Shown: in pieces, positions 7,390 through 58,256 of the stretch | Numbering within the stretch: the first letter of the stretch is position 1 | How the letters are laid out: every line of letters begins with the position of its first letter | Source: a phage | Reading direction: 5' to 3' (one strand) | Length of the DNA: 64,000 nt | Sequence record: PZ809289.1 | The notes under the pieces: generated by a model | Told to the model about the DNA's origin: nothing | What the model saw: only the letters and a program-made list of their open reading frames with translations | The model's database searches: none | Program-made: the position numbers and the translations under genes

Positions 7390-7719
7390 ATGCATAAAGA
7401 TTCAGTATTCAAATATCTTTTGAAAACAAATAAAGAATTCTATATGAATGGACAGGCCTTCTTGTTCGTTCGTGGTAAACGTGAGATGTTTTACAAATGC
7501 GACCTCTCAATGCACCATCATATGTATCACACCCGCGGTGAGCCTATACTGGGGTTCTCTGGTGACGAGACTAGACACATAGCTATGTACTACGACCATT
7601 TTAAGCTCAATGATTGTGGTGACAACGCTTTGGTCTGGAACCCGTCTTGGCGTCGTTGGGATACAGTAGACAATGATAAATTATTTTTAGAATATTGCAG
7701 AAGTGATGTACAACTCTAG
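7390..7719 (+). CDS. hypothetical protein
   Basis: ATG 7390 four nt after GGAGG; His/Cys-rich. Confidence 0.5.
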   Translation: MHKDSVFKYLLKTNKEFYMNGQAFLFVRGKREMFYKCDLSMHHHMYHTRGEPILGFSGDETRHIAMYYDHFKLNDCGDNALVWNPSWRRWDTVDNDKLFLEYCRSDVQL

Positions 7720-7762
7720 AAAATCATGTTACTATTACCCTACACAAACATGAGGAGAACAT

Positions 7763-8002
7763 ATGTGGTATTACGCTCCGATGTCCGATAAGTCTAATGA
7801 ACCGGTACGCATTACTCGCGCCAAGTTTAAAAAGATTTATGGCTTCTCTTATAAGAAGTCTGATTACGGTGTTCGTTTTGAAGATGCCCACTGTATCAAT
7901 GACCCTTATGCTGAAGAAATCTCTAATGAGATAATTCCTATCATTAAGAATAATTCTGATGATATGTGGGAATTGCATAACGATTACGTCGCTGAAATTT
8001 AA
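7763..8002 (+). CDS. hypothetical protein
   Basis: SD GAGGAG; 79 aa. Confidence 0.5.
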   Translation: MWYYAPMSDKSNEPVRITRAKFKKIYGFSYKKSDYGVRFEDAHCINDPYAEEISNEIIPIIKNNSDDMWELHNDYVAEI

Positions 8003-8021
8003 GTTTACTGAGGAAAATATT

Positions 8022-8981
8022 ATGATGTTAGTTATTGGTTCTCGTGCACTGCACCACGCTGGTCTGATTGAAAGTAAGCATATCGAAAATTCTGATTGGG
8101 ATTTCATTGCCGACCAAGGCTCATGGAATCACTTTAAAGCACGTATGTTCGGCGCCCATGTACACGTTGACAATCCTGATGTCCAGGCTTTCAAATGTAT
8201 GCATAATGGTAAAGAAACCTATTTTGAAGCTTATATCGTTCGTGCTCTGACTAACGTACGAGAAATTACCGGTGAGCTTCAAGACGAAGATTTCACTTCA
8301 AGCTATCGTCTCCTGAAATATGCTGAAAATCATATTAAAAAGGACCGTCTTACTGGTTTCTATTGGGCCACCCCTGATATCTGTCTGGCTATCAAAACCT
8401 CTCATCGTTTCCTTAAGAATAATCCGTTCTTCTTGAAAACCATGTCCCACATCAAATACCTTCGTAATAAAGGTATCACCCTTAACGAAGAACTCCAGGA
8501 AATTATGTTGCAACGTCAAAAAGAAACGTTGAGCTATTCCCACCCTAAATTGGATGTAAACAAATCATCGTTCTTTAATGATACCATTTATACGCTGGAC
8601 CATGACTCTATTCATGAAGCAGTGGCATTGGCAGGGCGCCCTGCATATACCTTTTATATGAAGGAAGGTTCTGAAGTCATGACCTCTCGTGAGAAGTTCG
8701 AGGCTTTGCCTGAAGCTATTAAACTGGCTGGTGTATATGAAGAAACTTGTGTCCTGGCACTAGAACGTTCACAGGTTCCTAATGACTTCAATATTTCACC
8801 ATCATTAAGTTTTTATATGGCTCTTGAGAAAGTGTGTACCTCAATCACTTCAGGTTGGTTCCGCGAGTACGCCTGGGAAAACTACCAAGCTGTAGTGAAT
8901 ATGTATAAGACTTTAGGTGAAAACGACTACATTGAACGGTTTAAGCGTAACCAACATTTAATTCGTCCTTTCGAAAAATAA
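8022..8981 (+). CDS. putative nucleotidyltransferase-fold protein
   Basis: ATG 8022 after GAGGAAA; N-terminal IGSRALHHAGLIESKHIENSDWDFI resembles minimal NTase G-S...D-x-D motif, later HVHVD; about 320 aa. Confidence 0.45.
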   Translation: MMLVIGSRALHHAGLIESKHIENSDWDFIADQGSWNHFKARMFGAHVHVDNPDVQAFKCMHNGKETYFEAYIVRALTNVREITGELQDEDFTSSYRLLKYAENHIKKDRLTGFYWATPDICLAIKTSHRFLKNNPFFLKTMSHIKYLRNKGITLNEELQEIMLQRQKETLSYSHPKLDVNKSSFFNDTIYTLDHDSIHEAVALAGRPAYTFYMKEGSEVMTSREKFEALPEAIKLAGVYEETCVLALERSQVPNDFNISPSLSFYMALEKVCTSITSGWFREYAWENYQAVVNMYKTLGENDYIERFKRNQHLIRPFEK

Positions 8982-12910: not shown

Positions 12911-13318
12911 ATGACTCGTATCAACCTTACCTTAGTATCTGAATTGGCTGACCAACACTTAATGGCTGAATATCGTGAATTACCACGTGTTTTCGGTGCA
13001 GTTCGTGAACGTATTGCCAAAGGGCAAGGCTTCTCTGATATCCCTAAAGACTTCCGCCTTGGTTCAGGGCACGTCAAGTTCTTTTATGACAAAATTGGTT
13101 TTTTGTTCTTGCGACAAAATGCAATAATTGAGGAACTTCTGAAGCGTGGTTACCAGATTCAAAATACCCATGTAGACGTAGCGGATATTCCATTACGGCT
13201 TATGAACGATTTCACTCCAACCGAAGCTGATATAGCTTTAAGCCAAGCTCGTCTGGATGAAAAAATTGCACAGCGTCCTACCTGGTACAAACATTATGGC
13301 AAGGCTATTTACGCTTAA
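12911..13318 (+). CDS. denV: endonuclease V (pyrimidine dimer DNA glycosylase) DenV
   Basis: Starts [32 protein letters not shown], essentially the T4 DenV N-terminus; C-terminal [15 protein letters not shown]. Confidence 0.95.
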
Positions 13319-13661: not shown

Positions 13662-13765
13662 TAAAGGCAAGCCGGCCCTCTCCTCATGAACGTCTAGTCC
13701 TCTGGGTGATGAACCCAAGGATGAATTATGTGCCAAGGATTAGTCCATAACTTAAAGAGTCAAAA

Positions 13766-14125
13766 ATGAAAACATATCAGCAATTTATTACTGAATCTAC
13801 CCAACGTATTAACGAAGCTATGTCGCCTGAACAGTTGGCTAAAGCTAAAGAAGGCCTGAACCCATCTGAAGTTTTTAAAGTTACAGGTAAAGACTTTGCT
13901 TCTATGGCCACTAACCAAAGCCTGGCTAAAGAACTTAAATCTAAATCTAACTTCATTCATGCTACATGGAATGGTGATTCTCTTACTTCAATAAGTGTGT
14001 ACAATAAAAAAGGTCTCCTTAAGAGTTCTTATGGCGCGGATGCCATCCGTGTTTCTAAATCAGATTGGCATAAAAACACTACTAAAGCAGAAAAACCTCA
14101 TAACCCGGCACTAGACCATCTTTAA
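13766..14125 (+). CDS. internal-protein-like protein with capsid targeting sequence
   Basis: Starts MKTYQQFITEST; 119 aa. Confidence 0.65.
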   Translation: MKTYQQFITESTQRINEAMSPEQLAKAKEGLNPSEVFKVTGKDFASMATNQSLAKELKSKSNFIHATWNGDSLTSISVYNKKGLLKSSYGADAIRVSKSDWHKNTTKAEKPHNPALDHL

Positions 14126-14133
14126 GGCTTAAT

Positions 14134-14391
14134 ATGAAAACTTACCAAGAATTTATTACAGAATCCACTTTAGTTTCTAAACGTTGGAATATGATTGTAA
14201 ACGTTAAACCTTCCGGCACTGAAGTTTCTATGGCCGACCCTAATGATGACGAACTTGAGCACGCTTTTAGCTCTAAAGAAACTGACGAGAAAGTGGTTAA
14301 GCAACTGGTTGCTGATGCAGATCAACTTCGTAAAGTAGCAGATGTTGTTAAGCTGTTTACTAAGAAAGGTTTTAAACACGAAGAACGTTAA
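14134..14391 (+). CDS. internal-protein-like protein with capsid targeting sequence
   Basis: Starts MKTYQEFITEST; 85 aa. Confidence 0.65.
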   Translation: MKTYQEFITESTLVSKRWNMIVNVKPSGTEVSMADPNDDELEHAFSSKETDEKVVKQLVADADQLRKVADVVKLFTKKGFKHEER

Positions 14392-14540
14392 TTAGCATTT
14401 TAAATGGGAGCAACCTGGACCTCACAATTCTGTGAGGGACTCCCGCCAACCTGTAATAAGGTCGAGCCCAAGTGCGGTAATGGGTAAATGCAGAAAGGGA
14501 CGAATTAATGTGCCAAGGAACGGCCCTCAAAGGAAATACT

Positions 14541-17924: not shown

Positions 17925-18106
17925 GTCTGAGTAAAGAACAGAAAGATAAATTGTTTGAGCTTATCCATGAACTTCTAGATGAGCATGCAGAAGCAAATTC
18001 TTTTTATGATGAATATGGCCCGCTATCTCCCGAACATCAGGAAGAATTTGTCAATCGATTTGATGAGAAAGAAAACGAATTAATAGCTTATGTGAATACG
18101 CTTTAA
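17921..18106 (+). CDS. small acidic protein
   Basis: ATGA overlap at 17921; 61 aa. Confidence 0.4.
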   Translation: MSLSKEQKDKLFELIHELLDEHAEANSFYDEYGPLSPEHQEEFVNRFDEKENELIAYVNTL

Positions 18107-18115
18107 GAAGGTAAT

Positions 18116-18853
18116 ATGGCAAAGGAATTCCATTATAATTACTTGACTGTAATAAAAACCCATAAGGCAAATTATTACTATGTAGGTAAACACTCCACTG
18201 ATAATCTTTCAGACGGGTATTATGGAAGTGGTACGGTAGTTAAAAATATTTGTAAAAAGCATCCTTATAAAACTCGTATATTAGAATTCTTCGAATCTGA
18301 AGAAGAGGCGTATGCCGCCGAAATTCCTTTAGTTGAAAAGGCTAAATTAAAATATGGTAAGCATTCTTTAAATTTTGCTGATGGCGGAAGAGGTAAAAAG
18401 AAAGGAACCAAATTATCTAATTTAACTAAACAGAAAATGTCTAGGTCTAGAAAAGGAGTTAAATGGAGCAAAGCCAGAATAGAAGCTTCTAAATTCACCA
18501 CTTCTAATAAAGGTTTAAACCATTATTCCAATAGAATAGGATTTAGTGATGAGCATAAAGCTAAAATAGGATTAGCCTCTAAAAAATTAAAAGGATTTAA
18601 ACATAGCGCTGAAACCATAGAAAATATGAGTAACGCCAAAAAGGGCAAAAAGAATCCCATGTACGGTAAAAAGGGCGCTATGGCAGGAAAACCTTCTCCT
18701 ATAAGAAACGAATCTTGGAAATTTTACGATGAATTAAAACTCTTATGGGAAGAATCCAATAAGCCTTCAGCATATATGTTTAAAAAGATAGCTATAAGCA
18801 AAGGTTATCCTAATTGCTCTTATAGAGGAGTTGTATTTAAATGGCAAGCTTGA
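18116..18853 (+). CDS. GIY-YIG family homing endonuclease
   Basis: N-terminal YNYLTVIKTHKANYYYVGKHST, C-terminal repeated basic K/G-rich DNA-binding modules; overlaps start of tk. Confidence 0.7.
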   Translation: MAKEFHYNYLTVIKTHKANYYYVGKHSTDNLSDGYYGSGTVVKNICKKHPYKTRILEFFESEEEAYAAEIPLVEKAKLKYGKHSLNFADGGRGKKKGTKLSNLTKQKMSRSRKGVKWSKARIEASKFTTSNKGLNHYSNRIGFSDEHKAKIGLASKKLKGFKHSAETIENMSNAKKGKKNPMYGKKGAMAGKPSPIRNESWKFYDELKLLWEESNKPSAYMFKKIAISKGYPNCSYRGVVFKWQA

Positions 18854-33896: not shown

Positions 33897-34454
33897 ATGA
33901 CCGAAATTAAACTGACTAAAAATAACTATGTAAATAATAAGGAGCTTCTGAAAGCTATCACCCAATGGAAAACAGAACTCAGAGAAAATACCGATCCTAA
34001 TAAAATAGTTCGCCAGAACGACGTTATCGGCTTGGCTATTATGCTCATTGCTGAAGGACTAAGTAAACGTTTCAACTTCTCAGGATATACCCAATCTTGG
34101 AAGCAAGAAATGATTGCTGATGGAATCGAAGCTTCGATTAAAGGTCTTCACAACTTCGACGAAACAAAATACGACAACCCACATGCATATATCACTATGG
34201 CTTGTTTTAATGCCTTCGTTCAGCGTATCAAAAAAGAACGTAAAGAAATGGCAAAGAAATATAGCTACTTCGTCCATAATGTCTATGACAGTAATGATGA
34301 CGACATGGTAGGTATTGCAGATGAAACCTTTATCCAAGATATCTACGACAAAATGACTCAGTATGAAACCTCTTTAACTAAAGCACCAGGGTCTGATAAG
34401 AGTGCCGAACCTAAAGTTGGTGAACTGGATTTTTTATATGGAACATCAGATTAA
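33897..34454 (+). CDS. 55: late-transcription sigma factor gp55
   Basis: 185 aa; [13 protein letters not shown]...[49 protein letters not shown] matches T4 gp55. Confidence 0.9.
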
Positions 34455-34668
34455 TATCACTCCACTTTTAGATGGAATGGAAGACTTCGAAGCACTCCCT
34501 TATTTTATTAAATTGATATTACGGGATGTTAAAGGTCTTCCTATTGATATTGACCCACTTAACGTCAGGAATATTGAATTCACTTCTCCTGACAATAACG
34601 TAGATTACCGTTATCATGTTGAGAACGCTAATTTCTACTTCACTATTGAATTGACTCCAAAGGATTAA
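34441..34668 (+). CDS. hypothetical protein
   Basis: ATG 34441 overlapping gp55 stop. Confidence 0.4.
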
Positions 34669-34669
34669 T

Positions 34670-34981
34670 ATGCAAAGCCATGACATTTCTCAATTGACTG
34701 ATGAGCAAATTGAAGAAGCCCAGCAACGTTTAGAAGAGCACAATATTAAAGAAGCTAATTCTCAAGCGGCTAAGATTCTTAAGAAGAATGCTCGTGAAAT
34801 CCGTCGTTTAAATCTCCATGCCCAAGGCGCTGTACTTGAAAACAACTTTGAAGCATATAAGTACGCTTTAATTAAATTACGTGGTATTTACCGTCAACCT
34901 GTTACTGATGAACTTGTTCAATTGATGTGGGAATCTACCCGCAAACAAATTTGGGAAATCGTCAATGGCCCTAGTAAATAA
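34670..34981 (+). CDS. hypothetical protein
   Basis: 103 aa ORF immediately after preceding stop. Confidence 0.5.
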   Translation: MQSHDISQLTDEQIEEAQQRLEEHNIKEANSQAAKILKKNAREIRRLNLHAQGAVLENNFEAYKYALIKLRGIYRQPVTDELVQLMWESTRKQIWEIVNGPSK

Positions 34982-35223
34982 ACCCTTTAAACGGCTTCTT
35001 ATTGGAGCCGCCTTTAGACTTCGCTCATACGGTAATATCTGTATTAAGCAGTCCGAAACCGAATATAAAATGGTCGGCCAGTATTCCGATGGAATTTTTC
35101 GGATTGAGCCCGTAGCCAAGGTTTGGGTAGATTCTCATCAACTTAAGAAATGGTGGCAACGATGATAACGTGGACAGGCGGCTAATGAAAGACGAATACG
35201 AAAAAGTTTAAGAGGTTGTATGA

Positions 35224-35397
35224 ATGACGAATTCGATGGATTTTGATAAGATTAAATCTGACAAAAATGAGATGATACTTCAATTTGAAGCCGCTCGTAT
35301 TAAAGCAGAAAATGAAGGTACTATTACCTATAAGCCTATCAAGTTCAGGTCTAATCACGAACCTCTGTACGGTGTATTAGTTGGTAAAGGAGCTTAG
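35224..35397 (+). CDS. small protein (57 aa)
   Basis: Not in track; SD AAGAGG 8 nt upstream; ends in terminator stem. Confidence 0.3.
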   Translation: MTNSMDFDKIKSDKNEMILQFEAARIKAENEGTITYKPIKFRSNHEPLYGVLVGKGA

Positions 35398-35409
35398 GCT
35401 CCTTTTTTG
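35388..35409 (+). terminator. intrinsic terminator
   Basis: AAGGAGC-TTA-GGCTCCTT followed by TTTTTT. Confidence 0.6.
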
Positions 35410-35437
35410 CTTTATATTCGGATGATAAAATAAATCT

Positions 35438-36055
35438 ATGAAATACATCACATACCTGACAATATATTCCGGGACTAAGCTTCCACCGTTTTATATAGGG
35501 TCTACCACTTTAGAGAAGCATTCAAAAGGATATCACGGGAGTGTCCTTTCTAAAGCATATAAAGAAATCTATAAAAATGAGCTTTTAGAGCATCCAGAAT
35601 TATTTGACTCATGTATTGTAAGTGAACACCCTACAAGAGAAGAGGCTTTAGAAGCTGAAAGAATGTACCAGTTAAGAACGGATGCGGCCCAAAATCCTCT
35701 ATTCTTTAATAGGGCTGTCGCAGCTCCTAAAGGATTCTTTGGGCTTTCGCTACCTAAAGAGCAACACCCTCTTTACGGCTCTCATAATGCTAAAGGGTAT
35801 ATTCATTCCTATAATCCTATTACATTAGAACAAACCTTTGCACCTACAGTCCCCGAAGGATATGTAGAAGGTCGTTCACCTAATTATAAAGCATCTAGTC
35901 ATAATAAGGGCAGGAAGTGGTATAATAACGGAATAGAACATAAACTGATTAACCCATCTAATATTCCTGATGGGTGGGTCAAAGGTAAACTTCCTGGCTC
36001 TGCTTCTAAAGCAGCCTCCAAAATGTGGGAACGGATACGTAATGAAAATTCTTAA
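35438..36055 (+). CDS. GIY-YIG family homing endonuclease
   Basis: N-terminal YITYLTIYSGTKLPPFYIGST; freestanding, 3' end overlaps start of gene 47. Confidence 0.65.
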   Translation: MKYITYLTIYSGTKLPPFYIGSTTLEKHSKGYHGSVLSKAYKEIYKNELLEHPELFDSCIVSEHPTREEALEAERMYQLRTDAAQNPLFFNRAVAAPKGFFGLSLPKEQHPLYGSHNAKGYIHSYNPITLEQTFAPTVPEGYVEGRSPNYKASSHNKGRKWYNNGIEHKLINPSNIPDGWVKGKLPGSASKAASKMWERIRNENS

Positions 36056-39888: not shown

Positions 39889-40587
39889 ATGAAATTCTCT
39901 AAAGAAACTCTGAACATTCTGAAAAACTTCTCCAGTATTAACCCAGGTATCATGCTTAAGCCTGGTAACACTATTCTAACTCGTTCAGTAACGGGTGCAA
40001 GTTATGGTGAAGCTACTGTAAGCGATACCTTTGATATCGAAGCCGCAATCTATGATTTGAACGGCTTCTTAAGTATTCTGTCATTGGTATCTGATAGTGC
40101 TGAAGTTTCGGTAAGTGAAGACCAAACCACCTTAATTATTAAAGACCAACGTTCAACTATTAAATGGCCTATTGCCGACCCAAGTACAATTGCATTCCCA
40201 AGCAAAGCTATTCCATTCCCGGTGGCTGAAGTTATTTTTGACCTTAAAGCCGAAGATTACCAACAGTTGATGCGTGTGTCCTCTGGATTGAGTATTGATA
40301 CATTTGCTATCACTGTAGACAACGGTAAAATTGTAATCAATGGCTACAAACAAGTTGATGATAAGGACCTGGCACGTCCATTGTATTCCTTAGTGGTTGC
40401 AGACCATGATGGTCCTGAATTCAAATTCATTATCAACAAAACTAATATGAAAATGATGCCTGCCGATTACCATGTATTGTTATGGGCTCGTGGTGAAGGT
40501 CAGGACGCTCGTTTCGCAGCCAAGTTTGAAGGTTCACAAGCTTCTTATGTATTGGCTATGGAAGCAGGCTCAAGCCACTCGTTCTAA
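39889..40587 (+). CDS. 45: sliding clamp gp45
   Basis: MKFSKETLNILKNFSSINPGIMLKPGN...; colinear with T4 gp45 including PIADPSTIAFPSK and FEG...YVLAMEA. Confidence 0.95.
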   Translation: MKFSKETLNILKNFSSINPGIMLKPGNTILTRSVTGASYGEATVSDTFDIEAAIYDLNGFLSILSLVSDSAEVSVSEDQTTLIIKDQRSTIKWPIADPSTIAFPSKAIPFPVAEVIFDLKAEDYQQLMRVSSGLSIDTFAITVDNGKIVINGYKQVDDKDLARPLYSLVVADHDGPEFKFIINKTNMKMMPADYHVLLWARGEGQDARFAAKFEGSQASYVLAMEAGSSHSF

Positions 40588-41165
40588 TGTATATATGTTA
40601 TCATAATACGATAACCAACACTAAAACCAAGTGTGTCTATCATTATTTTGGTAGACACCGTGTTACTGCTGAAGAATACTACGGTACAGGTAAGTTTGTT
40701 AAGAAATGCAAACGAGAAAATGCTATTACTCCAGGTCTTTGGGAGTTTTGTGTTGAAGTTATCCATACAGTGGATACGTTTAAAGAAGCCAAGATTATTG
40801 AAGAAGAGCTTGTTAAAGAAGGCATATCAAAATATGGTATCCTTTGTGTTAATAAGAATCCTGGTGGTGATGGCGGTGTGGATTACCACACCGAAGAATC
40901 TAAACGTAAAATGTCAGAAACTAGAACAGGAAAATCAAGAATATTTTCCGAAAGTCATAAAGAAAATTTAAGTAAACGAGCCAGAAAATACTCTGATGTT
41001 TGGTCCGAACCTGTATATTCAAATCTTAAAACCATTTGGCTGGAAACAGGTATGTTAAAACGCGGACGGTTTAGTACGCTTTTACAAAAATATGGGTATA
41101 ATTATTCTGCGAATGAATTGAATAAAATTGTTAAACATTTTAATGAGGAAAATAATAATGAGTAA
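40587..41165 (+). CDS. GIY-YIG-like homing endonuclease inserted between genes 45 and 44
   Basis: N-terminal YICYHNTITNTKTKCVYHYFGRH, YYGTGKF and GGDGG motifs shared with the segB-like protein; T4 has no gene here. Confidence 0.6.
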   Translation: MYICYHNTITNTKTKCVYHYFGRHRVTAEEYYGTGKFVKKCKRENAITPGLWEFCVEVIHTVDTFKEAKIIEEELVKEGISKYGILCVNKNPGGDGGVDYHTEESKRKMSETRTGKSRIFSESHKENLSKRARKYSDVWSEPVYSNLKTIWLETGMLKRGRFSTLLQKYGYNYSANELNKIVKHFNEENNNE

Positions 41166-43287: not shown

Positions 43288-43309
43288 AAGGGACTTCGGT
43301 CCCTTTTGG
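43288..43309 (+). terminator. terminator/attenuator hairpin
   Basis: AAGGGAC-TTCG-GTCCCTT followed by TTTT. Confidence 0.5.
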
Positions 43310-46139: not shown

Positions 46140-46376
46140 ATGGAAGCTTTAATCGTTAGTGCTGGTGTTTTAGGATTCGGTTCTCTGGTTATTATGTTCA
46201 TCGGTTACTTTTTACCATGGATTCTGGCTCTTCTGCGAGGCACTCGTAGTAATGTAGGAATTTTCTTCCTTAATCTCCTGTTAGGCTGGACGATGATTGG
46301 TTGGGTAGTGGCTTTAATCTGGGCTATCGTCGCTGAACGTAAATCAAACGCACAAATCATTATTGTTAAACAATGA
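46140..46376 (+). CDS. imm: superinfection immunity protein Imm-like
   Basis: 78 aa, two transmembrane helices, GWTMIGWVVALIWA motif; directly downstream of gene 43. Confidence 0.7.
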   Translation: MEALIVSAGVLGFGSLVIMFIGYFLPWILALLRGTRSNVGIFFLNLLLGWTMIGWVVALIWAIVAERKSNAQIIIVKQ

Positions 46377-46399
46377 AAATAATTGTTTTATTTCTTATA

Positions 46400-46510
46400 A
46401 TGGCTGCCTTTACCGTTTATTGGGCAGTGGCAATTCCGCCAATGATTCCGACACTCATCATTGGATGGATTATTCTTATAGCACAAATTAAGTATAACTG
46501 TTTTAATTGA
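46400..46510 (+). CDS. small hydrophobic peptide (36 aa)
   Basis: Not in track; single transmembrane helix; weak SD. Confidence 0.25.
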   Translation: MAAFTVYWAVAIPPMIPTLIIGWIILIAQIKYNCFN

Positions 46511-46517
46511 GGATATT

Positions 46518-47018
46518 ATGAAAAAGTTAATTATCGCAATGAGTATGCTCCTATCAGGTTGCGCGGTCCAATATGGTGATACAGTTTCGGCCGATGAAGT
46601 TGGTAAAGCTCGTATCGCAGCTGAACAGAAACAATTCGATGGCGAAATGAAATTCCGTGCAGGTTCTGGACTTGTGTACACCCGAGCTAATAATCAATGC
46701 GGTAATAACTGTGCAAAATATGCTCAACAAGAAATCGAATTCCAACGTGAACAAGAGTCCAAGCGTGAAGCGGTACTAGCCAAACACCAGGCAGAAATGA
46801 AGCGTCAAGATGATTTGTACAAAAAGCAGAAACTGTATGCGATGTGCGTAAACCATATCAATCTACAGATTTCCATCCACGAGGCTCGTTATTACGAAAT
46901 GCTCGAAACCGAGAGCTTCGGTAAAGCTCGTGATTATAAGAAACAAATCGATAAGCTCAAGACCAAAGTACCGGCGGCAATAGAACAGTGTATTGAAATC
47001 GGTAAAGATAAGATTTAA
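46518..47018 (+). CDS. lipoprotein
   Basis: Signal peptide with lipobox LLSGC; charged coiled-coil mature region. Confidence 0.6.
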   Translation: MKKLIIAMSMLLSGCAVQYGDTVSADEVGKARIAAEQKQFDGEMKFRAGSGLVYTRANNQCGNNCAKYAQQEIEFQREQESKREAVLAKHQAEMKRQDDLYKKQKLYAMCVNHINLQISIHEARYYEMLETESFGKARDYKKQIDKLKTKVPAAIEQCIEIGKDKI

Positions 47019-47078
47019 GCAATACCAATTTATTAAAAATAGTGTATAATGTACCTACATTCACTTGAGGAACAGATA

Positions 47079-48752
47079 ATGAAAAAGGTTGTTATTTTAG
47101 GCGCGGGTCTTGGCTCACGGTTGTATCCAATTACCAACGAAATCCCGAAGGTACTGGTTAACTACAAACAACATACTGTATTAAAACATTTGTATGATTT
47201 GTATAGTAATCAATCAGATGAAATTATTCTGGTTATTCACAGCAAATTTAACGACCTCGTTAAAGGCTATATTAAATCCATTAACATGATTAATAGTGAT
47301 AAGCCTAAATTCACTATTCGTAACGTTGATGTTGCCAATGGTTCGGCTCATGCTATCGATTGCATTGCTGAAGATATCATTGGGCACAATGTCTTGTTTA
47401 ACTGGTGTGATATTATTCCTGAAGGTCATAAAGTTGAGTGGGATACCGACTACTGTTATACCTATGGGACCGACTGTCGTTTTACATTTGAAGAACCGTA
47501 CTTGCGTGAAATTGGTACCGGTGGTGGCGTAGTTGGCTTGTATCAGGTGGCTAATTGGACAGGTTTCGACCGTTCTAATTATGGTGAAGACCTTGCTGAC
47601 AACCTGGATTCAATGGTCCATTTGACTGAACGTAAGTTAGACTTTGTAGTTGATGTTGGTGACAAACTGAAACTGGCTAAGGCCCATGAAGATTCTGAAA
47701 TTAACCGTGAATTTAATAAATTAGAGTTCACTGAGAATCTAGCTATTAAAGTACCTACAAACGAATTAGGTAAAGAAATCCAATCTAAAGAAATCAATTG
47801 GTACAATTCTATTGATTCTGAATTCGTTCCTAGCATTGTAGACTTTGCTCCAGGTGAATTCATTAAAATGGAACGTATCTTTGGTCGAACCATGGCAGAT
47901 GCCTACCGGTTTATGTCTAAAGAAACTAAAGTCCTAATGGTTTATAAGGTTATTAGTGCATTACGTTCGTTCGGTGGAACTATCGATAATCCGTCCGATG
48001 AGCAATGGTATTCTGATGTTAAGAAAGAAGTATTGGACAAGGTCCTTATTCGTAATGCTTCTATTGCCGGATTGATTGAAGGCTTTGCTCCACAGGGTAT
48101 TACCCATGTTAACGACTTCAAGGTAGGCGACCCAGAAAAACTTCTTCGTCACGCCTTAGAAATTCTGTCTGAACATAAAGAACCGTACCAACTTATTCAT
48201 GGCGACCCGCACTACAGTAATATTATGTTGTCGGACGAAGGTAATATTAAAATCATCGACCCACGTGGTTATTTTGGTAATAGTTCTAAAGGCCCTGCGA
48301 TTTATGATGAAGCTAAGGTGCTTTATTCTATCGATGGTTATGACAAATTTAACTCTGACCCTCTATGGGGTGGCTTAACTCGTAACGGAACTCGTGTATT
48401 CGTTGATATTGAAAAGGTTATGCCTTTAGATGATATTCCGATGTGTACATTTAAGCACAAGCTCTGGATTGCTGTTATCTGGATGGCATTGGCAGGTTAC
48501 TTTAAAAATAACCCTCTGAAAGCTCTGGGCGCTTATTACAATGGGCTATATCAACTGAGTGTGCTGCTGAAGCGGCATCCTCGTAAGCGTAAGCTTATCA
48601 CAGGTGAATTCGTTGATGAAGTTCGCGACCCTATCACGGCTCAAATTATCACTCGTTGTCCTGATAAGTGGGTTTTGCTTGACCAGGAAACTGGTGTAAA
48701 ATATAAACCTACAGGTTCTACCGAACTCCACAAACAATGGAAGAAAATTTAA
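47079..48752 (+). CDS. bifunctional sugar-1-phosphate nucleotidyltransferase / APH-fold kinase
   Basis: N-terminal ILGAGLGSRLYPITNEIPKVLV (RmlA/GlmU-type); C-terminal LIHGDPHYSNIML and IKIIDPRG (Brenner motif); ATG 47079 after GAGGAACAG. Confidence 0.7.
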   Translation: MKKVVILGAGLGSRLYPITNEIPKVLVNYKQHTVLKHLYDLYSNQSDEIILVIHSKFNDLVKGYIKSINMINSDKPKFTIRNVDVANGSAHAIDCIAEDIIGHNVLFNWCDIIPEGHKVEWDTDYCYTYGTDCRFTFEEPYLREIGTGGGVVGLYQVANWTGFDRSNYGEDLADNLDSMVHLTERKLDFVVDVGDKLKLAKAHEDSEINREFNKLEFTENLAIKVPTNELGKEIQSKEINWYNSIDSEFVPSIVDFAPGEFIKMERIFGRTMADAYRFMSKETKVLMVYKVISALRSFGGTIDNPSDEQWYSDVKKEVLDKVLIRNASIAGLIEGFAPQGITHVNDFKVGDPEKLLRHALEILSEHKEPYQLIHGDPHYSNIMLSDEGNIKIIDPRGYFGNSSKGPAIYDEAKVLYSIDGYDKFNSDPLWGGLTRNGTRVFVDIEKVMPLDDIPMCTFKHKLWIAVIWMALAGYFKNNPLKALGAYYNGLYQLSVLLKRHPRKRKLITGEFVDEVRDPITAQIITRCPDKWVLLDQETGVKYKPTGSTELHKQWKKI

Positions 48753-49111
48753 TGCATCTGTGTTTTGATATCGATAATACCATTACTCACTGGCAAGATG
48801 ACCGTGATTACGAAAACTTTAAACCGGACACCGAAATGGTGTCCATGATTAATAAGCTTTATGATGAAGGGTACGAGATTACCTTGTTCACTGCCCGTGG
48901 TATGACTTCATGCGGCCCGGGTCGAATCTTGGTTGAAGTAGTTCCTGCATTAGTTAAGAACCTTGAAAAGATTGGATTGAAATATCACAATCTGCTTACA
49001 CATAAGCCGAGTTATACTTTTATCATCGATGACCGAGCAATCCGTCCTGACCACTTTAAAGAAATGGTTCGTGAAGGAACTCTTGAAACCTATAAGGCAT
49101 ATCATCCGTGA
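48752..49111 (+). CDS. HAD-superfamily phosphatase
   Basis: Motif I FDIDNTIT (DxDxT) at N-terminus, downstream TARG and IIDD; TAATG overlap. Confidence 0.65.
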   Translation: MHLCFDIDNTITHWQDDRDYENFKPDTEMVSMINKLYDEGYEITLFTARGMTSCGPGRILVEVVPALVKNLEKIGLKYHNLLTHKPSYTFIIDDRAIRPDHFKEMVREGTLETYKAYHP

Positions 49112-49644
49112 AACCAAAAATCATTGTTATCGACGGCCCGGATAATTCCGGGAAGTCTACTTTAATTGAATCACTTTTATCTGATAAGAAATATCGTCTT
49201 ATTGATTTCCCTAAAAAGATTAATGGCAAATGCATTTCATTAGGGACTGATAATGACAAGGCTTTAGTCGAGACGTTGTATAAGTTTTTAGACCCTAATT
49301 TTGTCTACATCTTAGACCGTGGGTATCCTAGTAATATTGTTTACTCTGGATTCCTTCGTGGTGAAATGGACCCTTATGTAGAACTGGAAGATTGGAAAGG
49401 GTTTAAATCTGAATTCAATATTATTGAGGTTATTTTAACCCGTAATCCACTGGATAAAGACTTTGAAGATGACCTTATTAAATTAACCAAAGACGAGTTC
49501 AACCTAACTATCCGGCAATATGAAACATGTTTTGAAAACGTGTTTAAAATCTTAAATCACGACGGCCATAATAACTTGCTTAACGTCGATATGGTAGAAT
49601 TAAAACGTCTGAATGAATATATTGAAAATAAGGTGAATAAATGA
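49108..49644 (+). CDS. P-loop nucleotide kinase (dNMP/thymidylate-kinase-like)
   Basis: Walker A IVIDGPDNSGKST, DRG-Y motif; ATGA overlap. Confidence 0.6.
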   Translation: MKPKIIVIDGPDNSGKSTLIESLLSDKKYRLIDFPKKINGKCISLGTDNDKALVETLYKFLDPNFVYILDRGYPSNIVYSGFLRGEMDPYVELEDWKGFKSEFNIIEVILTRNPLDKDFEDDLIKLTKDEFNLTIRQYETCFENVFKILNHDGHNNLLNVDMVELKRLNEYIENKVNK

Positions 49645-50339
49645 AACACATTACCGCTGTTAGTTTTGAAAACGCGTTTAAGCAAATGAACGAAGAAATC
49701 CTGGAAGCCCCACAGTTTGCAGTTGATTCTCGTATCGGCCGTTGTTATGAAATTGGTTCTGCTTCGGTAGAAGTACTGGATGCAAGCACCTATAAATTCA
49801 CCGACCCTCGTATTAATCGTATCAACTATGATTATGCCGAATCTTTCTGGAAGTTTATGATTTCTGGTGGTACTGACGCCGCCGAAGCATTTAAGGAATA
49901 CCCTAATGTTGCTAAGTTCATTGATAAGCCGAAAAGTGACGTATTGCCTGCAAACTTCAACACTTTCTATGGACCTAGAATTGTGGCCCAACTCCCAGCC
50001 TTACTTAAAGAGCTTAAAGAGAAGCCTAACTCAAGACGAGTTGTGTTCCAAATTCTCCAAGAACAAGACCAAGCCCTCCTTGATTCTGACGAATCCTTAG
50101 AATATCCATGTACTGATTCAGTGACATATTATATTCGTGATGGACGTCTTTATGCACATACCCATATGCGTTCACAGAACTGTGCTATTGTTATGCAGCT
50201 GGATTTCTATCTGCAGGGTAAACTGATGGCCTTTATTGCTGAACAGTGTGGTGTTGGTCTGGGTACGTATTCCCATACTATGGTTAGTGCACACGTATTT
50301 GAACGTGATTTTGACTACGTTCGAGGATTCCTGAAATGA
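49641..50339 (+). CDS. 42: pyrimidine hydroxymethylase of thymidylate-synthase family (gp42-like)
   Basis: CTDSVTYYIRDGRLYAHTHMRSQNCAIVMQLDFY aligns with the T4 gp42 active-site region; ATGA overlap. Confidence 0.75.
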   Translation: MKHITAVSFENAFKQMNEEILEAPQFAVDSRIGRCYEIGSASVEVLDASTYKFTDPRINRINYDYAESFWKFMISGGTDAAEAFKEYPNVAKFIDKPKSDVLPANFNTFYGPRIVAQLPALLKELKEKPNSRRVVFQILQEQDQALLDSDESLEYPCTDSVTYYIRDGRLYAHTHMRSQNCAIVMQLDFYLQGKLMAFIAEQCGVGLGTYSHTMVSAHVFERDFDYVRGFLK

Positions 50340-51229
50340 GTTTGTTTATCGTTCCTATTTTCAGTATGCGTAGTTACGAAACAGGTGAATATGCCGTCCT
50401 TAAGGACGGCAATTTTCAACTCCATTTAAACCGTGCTTGCCCAGGTGATTATCTGGCTTATCCTAGAAATTCGAGCGATATCAAAGAATGCATTGAATTA
50501 TTTCCTGAACTGAATTTTGTACCTCTTTGGTATAAAGAAAATGCTTATGAAACTCGTAAACATTTTTGGTCTGAAAATGAGTTCGTTGTTGATTCGTTAA
50601 TCGAATACTATGACTGCTCAGGATTGGTAACCGATATCACAGGTTATGATGGTGCTCATACCGTACAATTCAACTTTAACATTACAATGGACCCTGAAGT
50701 TCCTCGTTATTACATCGATGAGTTTATTGATACCGACGTGGGTTCAGTTGAACGTTCGATTTATACTACAGTCTTGAATCAATGTCAGAAAGACGTCCTG
50801 GTGTCACGAGGTGCGTCCTCTGATAAGATTTTTGTAGACCAAAAGGTAATTAATCCGGCAGTAATTGAGCGTTACTCTGAAGGTCTAGCGCCTATTAAAA
50901 TTGATGGTATTTTCCATCCATTCCGTATCTCTGATAAATGTTATCAATTCGAAAGAGTTGTAGACCAAGCTGCGGCTGAAGGTTCTCGCCTTTATATCAC
51001 CGATCCGAATGATTCATTTAAGCGTGAAGACTATCGTCCTGATGTAGAGATTATTAAATTCAAACCGAGTAAGGTTGAATATTATCAGATTCTGAAATCA
51101 AGACCTCATATCATTTATCATGAGAATCCCGGTTTAGTATTCCATCCTGGTCTGGCTGAATTCATTTATTTCGGTGCCCACATCCATTCTGAGCACGAAA
51201 TGCCAAGTTATGAGGACGTGGTCCTTTAA
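50336..51229 (+). CDS. putative DNA glycosyltransferase (occupies beta-gt position, not beta-gt-like)
   Basis: 297 aa ORF between gp42-like gene and uvsX, ATGA coupled to gene 42; no motif recognised by eye. Confidence 0.4.
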   Translation: MSLFIVPIFSMRSYETGEYAVLKDGNFQLHLNRACPGDYLAYPRNSSDIKECIELFPELNFVPLWYKENAYETRKHFWSENEFVVDSLIEYYDCSGLVTDITGYDGAHTVQFNFNITMDPEVPRYYIDEFIDTDVGSVERSIYTTVLNQCQKDVLVSRGASSDKIFVDQKVINPAVIERYSEGLAPIKIDGIFHPFRISDKCYQFERVVDQAAAEGSRLYITDPNDSFKREDYRPDVEIIKFKPSKVEYYQILKSRPHIIYHENPGLVFHPGLAEFIYFGAHIHSEHEMPSYEDVVL

Positions 51230-51306
51230 CGCTGTAAATGTGAAGTGATATAATTACCCTATCTTAAAACGTGAGTAAAATATAATGATGCCTATGGAAA
51301 AATATA

Positions 51307-52479
51307 ATGTCTGATTTAAAATCCCGTTTGATTAAAGCTTCTACTTCTAAAATGACCGCCGACCTGACCAAATCTAAATTGTTTAATGGTCGTGACGAAG
51401 TTCCTACTCGTATCCCTATGCTGAATATTGCATTGGGCGGTGCGTTGAATGCAGGCTTACAATCAGGTTTGACAATCTTTGCTGCTCCATCTAAACACTT
51501 TAAAACGTTGTTTGGACTTACCATGGTTGCGGCATATATGAAGAAATATCCAGACGCAATTTGTTTGTTCTATGACTCTGAGTTTGGTGCTTCAGAATCT
51601 TATTTCCGTTCGATGGGTGTTGATTTGGAACGTGTGGTTCATACACCAATCCAGTCAGTCGAACAGCTTAAAGTTGATATGACCAACCAGTTAGAAGAAA
51701 TTACTCGTGGCGAAAAGGTTATTATCTTTATCGACTCCATTGGTAACACTGCTTCTAAGAAAGAAACCGAAGATGCTTTGAACGAGAAAGTTGTAGGTGA
51801 TATGACCCGTGCTAAGTCACTGAAATCTCTGTTCCGTATCGTAACACCTTATCTGACTATCAAAGATATCCCTTGTGTAGCAATCAACCACACGGCTATG
51901 GAAATTGGTGGAATGTACCCTAAAGAGATTATGGGTGGTGGTACTGGTATTCTGTACTCTGCTTCTACCGTGTTCTTTATCTCTAAACGTCAGGTTAAAG
52001 ATGGTACTGAGCTCACTGGTTATGACTTCACACTGAAGGCCGAGAAATCTCGTACGGTTAAAGAGAAATCAACGTTCCCGATTACAGTGAACTTCGAAGG
52101 TGGTATCGACCCATTCAGTGGATTGCTTGAAATGGCTACTGATATTGGCTTTGTCGTGAAACCTAAAGCTGGCTGGTATAATCGTGCATTCCTTGACGAA
52201 ACCACAGGCGAAATGGTTCAAGAAGAAAAAGCATGGCGTGCTAAAGCTACCGATTGTGTCGAGTTCTGGGGACCGCTGTTTAAACATGCCCCGTTCCGTG
52301 AAGCAATCGAGAATAAGTATAAGCTCGGTGCAATTAATTCTATTAAAGAAGTTGACGATGCAGTGAACGACCTTATTAACTCTCGTGTCTCTAAGAACGT
52401 TGCTGTTAAATTAGGTGGTAATGCCCAAAGCGCCGCTGATATCGAAAACGATTTGGAAGAGATGAATTTAGATGACTGA
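51307..52479 (+). CDS. uvsX: recombinase UvsX (RecA-like)
   Basis: MSDLKSRLIKASTSK..., Walker A region, FIDSIGN..., colinear with T4 UvsX. Confidence 0.95.
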   Translation: MSDLKSRLIKASTSKMTADLTKSKLFNGRDEVPTRIPMLNIALGGALNAGLQSGLTIFAAPSKHFKTLFGLTMVAAYMKKYPDAICLFYDSEFGASESYFRSMGVDLERVVHTPIQSVEQLKVDMTNQLEEITRGEKVIIFIDSIGNTASKKETEDALNEKVVGDMTRAKSLKSLFRIVTPYLTIKDIPCVAINHTAMEIGGMYPKEIMGGGTGILYSASTVFFISKRQVKDGTELTGYDFTLKAEKSRTVKEKSTFPITVNFEGGIDPFSGLLEMATDIGFVVKPKAGWYNRAFLDETTGEMVQEEKAWRAKATDCVEFWGPLFKHAPFREAIENKYKLGAINSIKEVDDAVNDLINSRVSKNVAVKLGGNAQSAADIENDLEEMNLDD

Positions 52480-57734: not shown

Positions 57735-58256
57735 ATGGCACACTTTAACGAATGCTCACAACTTATTGCTGGTGTTGATAAAGCTGAGGAAGCTTATTTT
57801 AATGCTCTGATTCACGAAGATAAAGACCCTCTGCAGGTTATGCTTGATATGCAGAAATCATTACAAGTCCGTTTGGCTAAAGATAAACCTGAATATAACC
57901 GTCATCCTGATGACTTGGCTACTGCAGGTGAAGTTGTTGATTGGTTGCGCAATCAGAAAGATTATATTGATGATGAATTCCGCGAACTTCTGACTTCTCT
58001 TGGTGGCATGAGCAATGGCGAAAAAGATGCGAGCGCTGTATGGAAGCCTTGGAAAGCTCAACATGCTGAACGTCGTGAAACCCTGATTAACGATTTGTCT
58101 CCTGAAGACCAGCTCGAAATTAAATTCGAAATGATTGATATTCTGCACTTTGTTCTGAATATGTTCCAAGGTCTTGGACTGACTGCTGAAGAAATCTTTA
58201 AACTGTATTACCTGAAAAATGCCGAGAACTTTGCTCGCCAGGACCGAGGTTATTAA
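57735..58256 (+). CDS. 56: dCTPase gp56-like (all-alpha NTP pyrophosphatase)
   Basis: 173 aa; synteny between 61 and soc; acidic helical sequence as expected for the MazG-like fold. Confidence 0.6.
   Translation: MAHFNECSQLIAGVDKAEEAYFNALIHEDKDPLQVMLDMQKSLQVRLAKDKPEYNRHPDDLATAGEVVDWLRNQKDYIDDEFRELLTSLGGMSNGEKDASAVWKPWKAQHAERRETLINDLSPEDQLEIKFEMIDILHFVLNMFQGLGLTAEEIFKLYYLKNAENFARQDRGY

Follow-up and report, generated by a model that had tools for sequence, protein, structure and literature searches.

A five-gene Dhakavirus cluster predicted to make arabinosyl-5-hydroxycytosine DNA

Five adjacent genes, here called W1 to W5, of a Dhakavirus, a T4-like coliphage, very probably form the version of the arabinosyl-5-hydroxycytosine (ara-5hoC) DNA hypermodification pathway found in that genus, judging by their sequences. 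They lie in the window analysed here, 64,000 nucleotides of phage record PZ809289.1, from a genome with 99.4% identity to phage QL01. The cassette would be a DNA-protection kit, in which cytosine is replaced by sugar-coated 5-hydroxycytosine.

A sequence-only reading of this DNA had proposed a self-contained cassette for sugar activation and DNA glycosylation. This holds up: the genes are orthologues of the RB69 cluster, both W1 domains are intact, W2 is a HAD protein and W5 has a GT-B fold. The cassette is real but no longer new, as papers of 2025-2026 established the pathway in related phages. The same reading doubted that the precursor route had been worked out. That is outdated: the pathway is now published for RB69, HY126 and DLP3 (Lee et al., NAR 2026, PMC13326640; He et al., Nat Chem Biol 2026, as far as cited in the former), and with the route in print the hoped-for novelty is gone. 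Lee et al. already name Dhakaviruses as carriers of a syntenic cluster (PMC13326640).

The locus and its conservation

All five overlapping plus-strand ORFs were found at the coordinates first given for them, spanning 47079-51229 (Table 1), and every motif quoted for them is present in the translations. The interval indeed lies between imm (46140-46376; Pfam Imm_superinfect, E = 5e-18) and uvsX (51307-52479). Two more ORFs separate imm from W1, one for a peptide of 45 aa (46373-46510), the other for a putative lipoprotein of 166 aa (46518-47018). The initial ATG of W1 has a GAGGA ribosome-binding site 8 nt upstream. For W2, an alternative start at 48737 is possible, and its N-terminus differs from that in phage dhabil.

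The junctions had all been described as ATGA or TAATG. Read directly, this is true of W1/W2 (TAATG, 1-nt overlap), W3/W4 and W4/W5 (both ATGA), but W2/W3 is a 4-nt GTGA overlap, and W3 starts with GTG, not ATG.

Table 1. Genes of the cluster and a predicted accessory gene outside the five-gene interval
Gene	Coordinates	Strand	Length	Assignment
W1	47079..48752	+	557 aa	predicted bifunctional sugar kinase / sugar-1-phosphate nucleotidyltransferase, AfhE-type
W2	48752..49111	+	119 aa	predicted small HAD-superfamily sugar phosphatase, AfhF-type
W3	49108..49644	+	178 aa	predicted thymidylate-kinase-fold P-loop nucleotide kinase; orthologue of RB69 gp45
W4	49641..50339	+	232 aa	predicted 5-hydroxy-dCMP synthase, thymidylate-synthase-superfamily dCMP 5-hydroxylase
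W5	50336..51229	+	297 aa	predicted first (base-proximal) arabinosyltransferase, compact GT-B fold
gp56-type dCTPase	57735..58256	+		predicted accessory gene; 100% identity over 173 aa to QL01 protein annotated gp56 dCTPase

Compared with phage dhabil, four of the five genes have a dN/dS of 0.025-0.055 (0.025 for W1) at a dS of 0.29-0.56, and homologues of the fusion protein W1 are found in 368 phage records. The five genes are real, and purifying selection acts on them; like the orthology, diagnostic residues, folds and gene content described below, this is seen directly.

The W1 proteins of Dhakavirus, Marfavirus and the Proteus and Providencia phages form one group of 81 records with at least 71% identity. 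The remaining matching records are below 60% (41-46% among the matches listed), and this lower set holds all phages in the sampled listings that carry an arabinose-5-phosphate isomerase (API). The W1 of the window phage is in a different subclade from that of RB69.

The enzymes and the predicted pathway

All five genes have orthologues in RB69. Identity is 79% for W4 (gp48), 64-70% for W5 (gp47+gp46, and also DLP3 gp79), 62% for W2 (gp51), 41-44% across the full length for W1 (gp53/gp52) and 37% for W3 (gp45).

W1 had been read as a fusion of a nucleotidyltransferase and an APH-fold domain, and profile searches agree. The N-terminal domain (about aa 1-205) scores 34.3 bits with Pfam NTP_transferase (E = 2.4e-8; cut-off 21.2). 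The C-terminal domain (about aa 206-557), an APH/choline-kinase-fold kinase, scores 26.1 bits with APH (E = 8.8e-6; cut-off 23.2). The whole protein is covered by phrog_4098 (E = 5.5e-269). Its motifs GAGLGSRLYPIT..IPK, IHGDPHYSN and IDPRGYFG are kept in the RB69, Marfavirus and Providencia homologues.

W2 is a HAD phosphatase, as had been claimed, with FDIDNT as its DxDxT motif and matches to PDB 9iqw_A (E = 1.6e-51) and 1xpj (E = 3.5e-12). The code 9iqw is in the same run as the HY126-labelled 9iqz. NCBIfam TIGR01689 (capsule biosynthesis phosphatase) matches with E = 1.9e-14, under the family cut-off. The database label 'phosphoheptose isomerase' for this protein is a misnomer.

W3 has the TMK fold, in line with its description as a thymidylate-kinase-like P-loop protein. 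W5 has a GT-B fold, keeps 21 of 21 family-invariant residues, and has the DNA-acting T4 alpha-gt among its closest structural neighbours. It sits in the beta-gt slot and had been called unlike T4 beta-gt; tblastn found no homologue of alpha-gt or beta-gt, either in the window or across the complete genome of QL01, its near-identical relative. The alpha-gt gene is also missing between genes 55 and 47, as noted earlier; that interval (34451-36042) has no room for it.

From these comparisons we infer the enzymatic activities, the sugar and the number of sugars per base. Phage dCTPase would yield dCMP; by analogy with T4 and with RB69 gp28 (PMC13326640 Table 1), the gp56-type gene would provide this supply and also keep dCTP out of phage DNA. 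W4, with its thymidylate-synthase fold, would turn dCMP into 5-hydroxy-dCMP. 5-hydroxy-dCTP would then be made by the gene 1 dNMP kinase, encoded just beyond the window, by the TMK-like W3 or by both, with host NDK for the last step, and the phage polymerase would put it into DNA instead of dCTP.

For the sugar, D-arabinose-5-phosphate (A5P) would be drawn from host KdsD/GutQ, since the phage itself encodes no isomerase. The W1 kinase domain would phosphorylate it at C1, W2 would take off the 5-phosphate, and the W1 nucleotidyltransferase domain would make UDP-arabinofuranose. W5 would add a single arabinose to the 5-OH of 5hoC. The sequence-only reading had placed the phosphatase first. The order reported for HY126 is different: A5P to Ara-1,5-bisphosphate (kinase), to Ara-1-P (phosphatase), to UDP-Araf (uridylyltransferase), with AfhE as A5P kinase and UDP-Ara pyrophosphorylase and AfhF as Ara-1,5-bisphosphate phosphatase (He et al., as cited in PMC13326640).

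The window has no counterpart of four RB69 genes: API (gp55), the U32 'peptidase' (gp50), gp49 and gp3, the second transferase; tblastn found no gene of these four types in the window or the whole QL01 genome. This is a minimal version of the pathway. Across phages, the number of sugars tracks the copies of gp3-type transferase: Mosigvirus has one copy (di-arabinose), the Acinetobacter phages two (tri-arabinose). One arabinose is reported for phage LC53 of Prodigiosinella (Serratia sp. ATCC 39006), and no Serratia-named phage record has a gp3-type transferase, LC53's own record being outside this check. Thanatos, with a single transferase, is described as mono-arabinosylated. As no second transferase is encoded, the DNA of the window phage is predicted to carry one arabinose per cytosine, from host arabinose-5-phosphate.

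Base, sugar and timing of transfer

The sequence-only reading took W4 for a gp42-like hydroxymethylase, with the sugar transferred onto hmC. The result would be arabinosyl-hmC, with phosphatase, anomeric kinase and nucleotidyltransferase acting in that order. W4 is indeed in the thymidylate synthase superfamily (Pfam PF00303) and in the gene-42 slot, the original RB69 report has arabinosyl-hmC (PMC6024577), and Table 1 of PMC13326640 still has phosphatase-first wording. However, W4 has only 25% identity to T4 gp42, against 79% to RB69 gp48, experimentally shown to be a 5-hydroxy-dCMP synthase that uses O2 (PMC13326640). It matches PDB 9iqu/9iqc/9ir2 (E = 1.5e-125). In an alignment with E. coli ThyA, its residues include C146, L143E, N177D and D169N; all four serve as criteria in PMC13326640, where D169N is the diagnostic residue. 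It equals gp48 at 13 of 13 active-site positions checked, whereas T4 gp42 retains D169. The identity to gp48 and D169N point to 5-hydroxycytosine as the acceptor, and to a predicted ether bond. The flavin and O2 dependence of dCMP 5-hydroxylation comes from work on the orthologues of RB69 and HY126 only. Later work calls the RB69 hmC assignment erroneous. The proposed link to RB69 survives for arabinosylation and for all five genes, but not for the base. As the cited roles of AfhE and AfhF also go against a phosphatase-first order, hydroxymethylation in this form is scarcely credible.

With 5hoC as the base, the sugar could still differ, since W1 is much more diverged from RB69 than its neighbours and the isomerase is missing; in the same architecture, W1 would use another host pentose-5-phosphate, such as ribose-5-P or xylulose-5-P. 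Besides the window and QL01, phage records of Klebsiella and some 52 of Escherichia type lack API, and Proteus falls outside the top ten genera listed for it, the smallest of which has 3 records. The W1 subclade is apart from the API-carrying phages in the sampled listings, and one study calls the Thanatos 5hoC sugar a deoxypentose. Against this, W5 (68% to RB69, 53% to Providencia) and W2 (62% and 65%) break the split, and W5 has all its family-invariant residues. API and W1 are neighbours in the cluster, at its end nearest the polymerase, so their correlation could come from genetic linkage by itself. Kdo synthesis in Gram-negative hosts passes through A5P. Lee et al. count the genera concerned among the arabinosylation clusters (PMC13326640), and another pentose is unlikely. 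The timing is a separate matter: W5 might act on 5-hydroxy-dCMP before replication, with W3 as a kinase dedicated to arabinosyl-5hodCMP, too bulky for the general dNMP kinase. The thymidylate synthase homologue, first transferase and TMK-like kinase form a conserved, contiguous trio in RB69, in DLP3 and also in Rhizobium phage RL38J1, which is unrelated, independent of the sugar (PMC13326640). In RB69 the gp1-type kinase can phosphorylate 5hodCMP (PMC13326640), so that no task is evident for W3. W3, W4 and W5 are joined through ATGA overlaps. Purified single transferases did not reconstitute the first transfer on 5hoC DNA, and Lee et al. state that their data leave DNA or nucleotide as its site undecided (PMC13326640). 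The DNA-acting alpha-gt among the neighbours of W5 argues the other way. To our knowledge, every phage DNA glycosylation characterised so far follows replication, as in T4 and in the gp76/gp77 step. Transfer before replication is unlikely.

Related systems

The ara-5hoC clusters of RB69 (gp45-gp55) and HY126 (Afh) occupy the same slot as W1-W5, from DNA polymerase to uvsX, and gp48 shares the diagnostic residues of W4. The window differs from RB69 in that its kinase gene is upstream of the thymidylate synthase homologue and not at the uvsX end, and in that imm and the lipoprotein gene intervene between polymerase gene and cluster. The RB69/HY126-type (Mosigvirus) pathway is reportedly also described by Mahler et al. 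in Cell Host Microbe in 2025.

Marfavirus (Klebsiella phages F48 / VAC36) shares the window gene order of bifunctional enzyme (80% identity), HAD protein (84%), kinase (76%), thymidylate synthase homologue (87%) and transferase (68%), and also lacks the isomerase. A U32 gene and a small ORF between kinase and thymidylate synthase homologue set it apart from the window, which looks like this arrangement after deletion of both.

In Shewanella phage Thanatos, of a distant genus, 5hodC is made by a thymidylate synthase homologue with D169N. The phage also encodes a homologue of the bifunctional enzyme and a single transferase, which is syntenic, and each of its cytosines bears one pentose. The study that called this sugar a deoxypentose found a separate UDP-xylose pyrophosphorylase activity.

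T4 gene 42 with alpha-gt/beta-gt shares slot and logic: a thymidylate synthase homologue acting at C5 of dCMP, kinase and polymerase, then a GT-B enzyme using a UDP-sugar. T4 however adds a hydroxymethyl, where a hydroxyl is predicted for the window, and uses folate, where orthologues of the window enzyme use flavin/O2 according to the literature. Its sugar comes from host UDP-glucose, as opposed to the arabinofuranose predicted to be activated by phage enzymes, and its transferases have no sequence counterpart here.

Gram-negative bacteria make ADP-heptose using HldE, a bifunctional kinase/adenylyltransferase, and the HAD phosphatase GmhB. The three-step logic is the same: C1 is phosphorylated, a HAD enzyme removes the distal phosphate, and the sugar-1-phosphate is nucleotidylated. 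Both HldE and W1 fuse kinase and nucleotidyltransferase, but sugar, nucleotide and domain folds differ, HldE having ribokinase-type and cytidylyltransferase-type domains and W1 an APH-fold kinase and an RmlA/GlmU-type domain. GmhB is a structural match of the phage phosphatase (PMC13326640).

Layout of the cluster

The five genes W1 to W5, between imm and uvsX, are a cluster for the arabinosyl-5-hydroxycytosine (ara-5hoC) pathway, a system that was published in 2025-2026. The phage is a Dhakavirus. Its cluster interval is 99.4% identical to that of phage QL01, and at least 80% of the interval is present in 52 phage records. Dhakaviruses are also listed among the genera with a syntenic cluster (Lee et al., PMC13326640).

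An earlier sequence-only reading of this DNA proposed a sugar-activation-plus-glycosylation architecture, linked to arabinose and RB69. Both ideas are borne out, as all five genes have orthologues in the RB69 cluster. It also supposed, with some doubt, that the precursor route had not been worked out; this pathway has since been published (Lee et al., PMC13326640; He et al., Nat Chem Biol 2026).

Features around the cluster and in the replication genes; lengths are those of the predicted proteins.
Feature	Position	Strand	Length
Homing-endonuclease-like ORF, between genes 45 and 44	40587-41165	+	192 aa
imm, upstream of cluster	46140-46376
gp54-like peptide, between imm and W1	46373-46510	+	45 aa
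Lipoprotein-type ORF, between imm and W1	46518-47018	+	166 aa
W1, bifunctional enzyme	47079-48752	+	557 aa
W2, HAD phosphatase	48752-49111	+	119 aa
W3, TMK-like kinase (GTG start)	49108-49644	+	178 aa
W4, thymidylate synthase homologue	49641-50339	+	232 aa
W5, transferase 1	50336-51229	+	297 aa
uvsX, downstream of cluster	51307-52479

The five ORFs are all where the sequence-only reading had them, on the plus strand. It named the flanking genes correctly (the Pfam match of imm has E = 5e-18) but did not mention two small ORFs between imm and W1. One encodes a hydrophobic peptide that is a homologue of RB69 gp54 (phrog_3610). The product of the other has a lipoprotein-type signal, MKKLIIAMSMLLSGC, and belongs to phrog_1754, of unknown function. 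Both appear to lie outside the modification pathway.

Read from the sequence, the W1/W2, W2/W3, W3/W4 and W4/W5 junctions are TAATG, GTGA, ATGA and ATGA. For W1 the start at 47079 is preferred over 47049 because a GAGGA ribosome-binding site precedes its ATG by 8 nt. The start of W2 (48737 or 48752, within 48737-48760), and hence its exact overlap with W1, is uncertain because the N-terminus differs among Dhakaviruses: that of Dhakavirus dhabil (L012:4674-4700) has 8 more residues and is unrelated. W1, W3, W4 and W5 are considered functional genes because their dN/dS is 0.025-0.055 against dhabil, at 90-94% DNA identity.

Scans for sigma-70 promoters (18 sites, 17.1 expected) and terminators (2 against 3.3 expected) gave no enrichment and so do not set the operon boundaries. 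Visual inspection shows a TATAAT ahead of W1, at 47045-47050, and a promoter-like site before uvsX, at 51226-51254; both are hints only. None of W1 to W5 has a specific NCBIfam model, and every match is far under cut-off.

Predicted base hydroxylation and sugar activation

W4 is a putative 5-hydroxy-dCMP synthase, which is to say a hydroxylase and not a hydroxymethylase. Its RB69 and DLP3 counterparts, gp48 and gp80, hydroxylate dCMP to 5-hydroxy-dCMP; O2 supplies the oxygen, and a flavin is bound to the enzyme (Lee et al., NAR 2026, PMC13326640). In the same paper D169N (numbered as in E. coli ThyA) is put forward as diagnostic, together with N177D, for dCMP specificity, and L143D/E.

W4 is homologous to thymidylate synthase (Pfam PF00303, E = 4.8e-14) and has a cysteine aligned to ThyA C146. 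In an alignment of W4, E. coli ThyA, T4 gp42, RB69 gp48 and the phage's own td, it has C146, E143, D177 and N169, and agrees with RB69 gp48 at 13 of the 13 positions examined, whereas T4 gp42 retains D169. The ThyA sequence in this alignment agreed at 12 of the 12 residues named in PMC13326640. W4 is 79% identical to RB69 gp48, against 25% over 159 residues for T4 gp42. In the PDB, its matches include 9iqu, 9iqc and 9ir2 (E = 1e-125). Homology to thymidylate synthase, Cys146, the diagnostic residues and a close verified relative together place it among the 5-hydroxy-dCMP synthases.

Because W4 carries D169N and its companion residues and resembles RB69 gp48, the acceptor base is predicted to be 5-hydroxycytosine, with the sugar in an ether bond. 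The sequence-only reading had a gp42-like hydroxymethylase here, and hydroxymethylcytosine as the base; the asparagine at 169 and the low identity to gp42 speak against this. The first assignment of RB69 DNA as 'arabinosyl-hmC' has itself since come to be regarded as mistaken.

W1 was expected to be a fusion of a nucleotidyltransferase and an APH-fold kinase, and Pfam finds both, NTP_transferase at the N-terminus and an APH-type kinase domain at the C-terminus, each above its gathering score. Having nucleotidyltransferase motifs (GxGxR...PK) and APH-fold kinase motifs (HxDxxxxN and D-x-x-G) in one polypeptide makes it AfhE-type. An alignment of four phages shows that the RB69, Marfavirus and Providencia homologues keep GAGLGSRLYPIT..IPK, the motif of the nucleotidyltransferase, as well as IHGDPHYSN and IDPRGYFG of the kinase. 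Homology to RB69 gp53 and gp52 is full-length, covering both halves with 44% and 41% identity (E = 1e-111). W1 would thus be an AfhE-type arabinose-5-phosphate (A5P) 1-kinase and UDP-arabinose pyrophosphorylase, like RB69 gp52:53 and DLP3 gp82, with A5P and UTP as putative substrates. Uncertainty about the substrate is raised because a phage isomerase is missing.

W2 carries HAD motif I, DxDxT (as FDIDNT), and is AfhF-type, like RB69 gp51 (62% identity) and DLP3 gp81. In the PDB it matches 9iqw_A (E = 1.6e-51) and, less strongly, 1xpj (E = 3.5e-12). RefSeq and PHROGs mislabel this HAD phosphatase as 'phosphoheptose isomerase', and the database label 'polynucleotide kinase' is likewise rejected.

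ADP-heptose synthesis by HldE and GmhB goes from kinase to phosphatase to nucleotidyltransferase, a step logic that the W1/W2 route would share. AfhF is a Mg-dependent phosphatase that converts arabinose-1,5-bisphosphate to arabinose-1-phosphate (He et al. 2026, as summarised by Lee et al., PMC13326640). Given the activities of AfhE and AfhF in that summary, sugar activation would proceed in the order kinase, phosphatase, nucleotidyltransferase. The phosphatase-first order of the sequence-only reading is regarded as wrong.

Putative sugar transfer, the W3 kinase and the predicted number of sugars

W5 is a putative transferase of arabinofuranose from UDP-Araf to 5-hydroxycytosine. Sequence homology and a GT-B fold put it in the arabinosyltransferase 1 family of RB69 gp46:47 and DLP3 gp79, and it retains 21 of the 21 residues that are invariant in this family. 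It is 70% identical to RB69 gp47 and 64% to gp46, the two parts of a single gene that a sequencing error has divided. In PMC13326640, this transfer by transferase 1 was not reconstituted. Searches of the window and of the entire QL01 genome by tblastn found no homologue of the T4 alpha- or beta-glucosyltransferase, and W5 itself has no detectable sequence homology to either. The label 'RNA polymerase binding protein' on W5 homologues was rejected.

W3 is a P-loop protein with a thymidylate-kinase fold, adjoining the thymidylate synthase homologue and transferase 1. This places it in the cluster-associated TMK-like kinase family, defined as RB69 gp45, DLP3 gp78 and RL38J1 gp214. It is 37% identical to RB69 gp45, and its predicted structure has a pLDDT of 86.8, on a shallow alignment (the homologue search gave 9 proteins). 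Providencia phage PSTCR6 has two tandem TMK-like kinase genes (L011:7021-7581 and 7666-8265), 40% and 36% identical to W3. The gene 1 dNMP kinase, expected inside the window, was not found there.

The role of W3 could be to act on a nucleotide that already carries a sugar, the first sugar then being added before replication. The kinase, the thymidylate synthase homologue and the first transferase are kept together in three phage families whatever the sugar. Single transferases were inactive on 5-hydroxycytosine DNA, and the data of Lee et al. do not settle whether DNA or a nucleotide is the first acceptor. RB69's gp1-type kinase already phosphorylates 5hodCMP (PMC13326640), which also speaks for such a role for W3. 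Even so, this explanation is thought improbable.

The phage is predicted to carry one arabinose per cytosine, because the reported number of sugars fits the copy number of the gp3-type (second) arabinosyltransferase. One arabinose is reported for Prodigiosinella (Serratia sp. ATCC 39006) phage LC53, two for Bas46, one or two for RB69 and three for DLP3. Thanatos has a single transferase and one arabinose. In the phage collection there are two gp3-type copies in Acinetobacter phages, and none in Serratia, Klebsiella and Dhakavirus phages.

Gene content and the proposed source of the sugar

The full RB69-type (Mosigvirus) gene set is not there. RB69 has gp55 (the A5P isomerase), gp50 (a U32 protein), gp49 and gp3; unlike RB69, this phage lacks all four, as tblastn of the window and the complete QL01 genome found no homologue of any of them. 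In QL01 the slot between rIIA and gp39, the gp3 site in RB69, has two small ORFs only. Marfavirus VAC36 shares the window's gene order, except that a U32 gene and a small ORF separate the kinase from the thymidylate synthase homologue; like the window it is without the isomerase. Over the phage collection, 368 records have the bifunctional enzyme, 276 the isomerase and 212 a gp3-type transferase. Among Escherichia-named records, the isomerase and gp3 are each in 137, which are taken to be Mosigvirus.

The U32-family gene lies within the clusters of both relatives, as gp50 in RB69 (L002:6493-7662) and at L010:7675-8835 in Marfavirus VAC36. It is missing from the window's W3/W4 junction (49644 / 49641). 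Lee et al. term the protein a 'sugar or heterocycle reductase' (PMC13326640). Other members of the U32 family are RlhA, which makes 5-hydroxycytidine in 23S rRNA (PMC5727448), TrhP, responsible for 5-hydroxyuridine in tRNA (PMC6599085), and UbiU/V, which hydroxylate independently of O2 with prephenate (PMC10990095). The U32 protein might provide 5-hydroxycytosine anaerobically. This is a lead only, its sole sequence support being a marginal NCBIfam match of RB69 gp50 and the Marfavirus protein to UbiU (E about 1e-3). If it is such a route, the U32-less window phage would depend on O2.

Identity of three cluster proteins to their homologues in other phages.
Protein	RB69	Marfavirus	Providencia phage
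W1	41-44%	80%	71.5%
W2	62%	84%	65%
W5	64-70%	68%	53%

With identities of at least 71%, the W1 proteins of Dhakavirus, Marfavirus and Proteus/Providencia phages make up a group of 81 records, and every other match falls below 60%. The split is not seen in W2 or W5. The W1 group coincides with the absence of the isomerase, judging by genus-level counts and, directly, by QL01. No discussion of the two W1 lineages was found. The isomerase and W1 genes lie side by side at the cluster's polymerase end and may simply be inherited or exchanged as a unit, or the W1 lineage may have adapted to a different or scarcer substrate.

Taken to its conclusion, the latter would mean that this lineage uses a different host pentose phosphate, and that Dhakavirus, Marfavirus and Proteus/Providencia phages put a single non-arabinose pentose on 5-hydroxycytosine. 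The list of natural DNA bases would then gain one more; the chance of this is rated as slim. The same sugar, made from host A5P, is favoured instead, because the split does not extend to W2 and W5 and no family-invariant residue is lost in W5. Arabinose drawn from host arabinose-5-phosphate is therefore the preferred proposal for this phage. In a weaker form of the novel reading, these phages would strictly need host KdsD/GutQ for A5P, which, if true, is an exploitable host dependency.

What novelty is left is limited to the predicted single arabinose, the dependence on host A5P and the role of the TMK-like kinase, and is incremental, not new biology. Sugar-coated cytosines let T4-like phages evade restriction enzymes and CRISPR-Cas, yet leave them exposed to modification-dependent nucleases. 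Because of this, it is useful to know the modification of a phage that is a target for therapy or engineering.

Elsewhere in the window, the ORF that separates genes 45 and 44 has a match in phrog_314, a homing endonuclease family (E = 9e-17), and looks like an isolate-specific insertion since the stretch does not align to QL01. By blastn, 1811-2580, 13006-13250, 13715-14449 and 17974-18845 also have no QL01 alignment; these early-region stretches are probably small indels or mobile ORFs. The mechanical ORF of the DNA polymerase opens with a TTG at 43306, but homology to the QL01 polymerase runs from 43366 on, and the likely gene is the shorter form.
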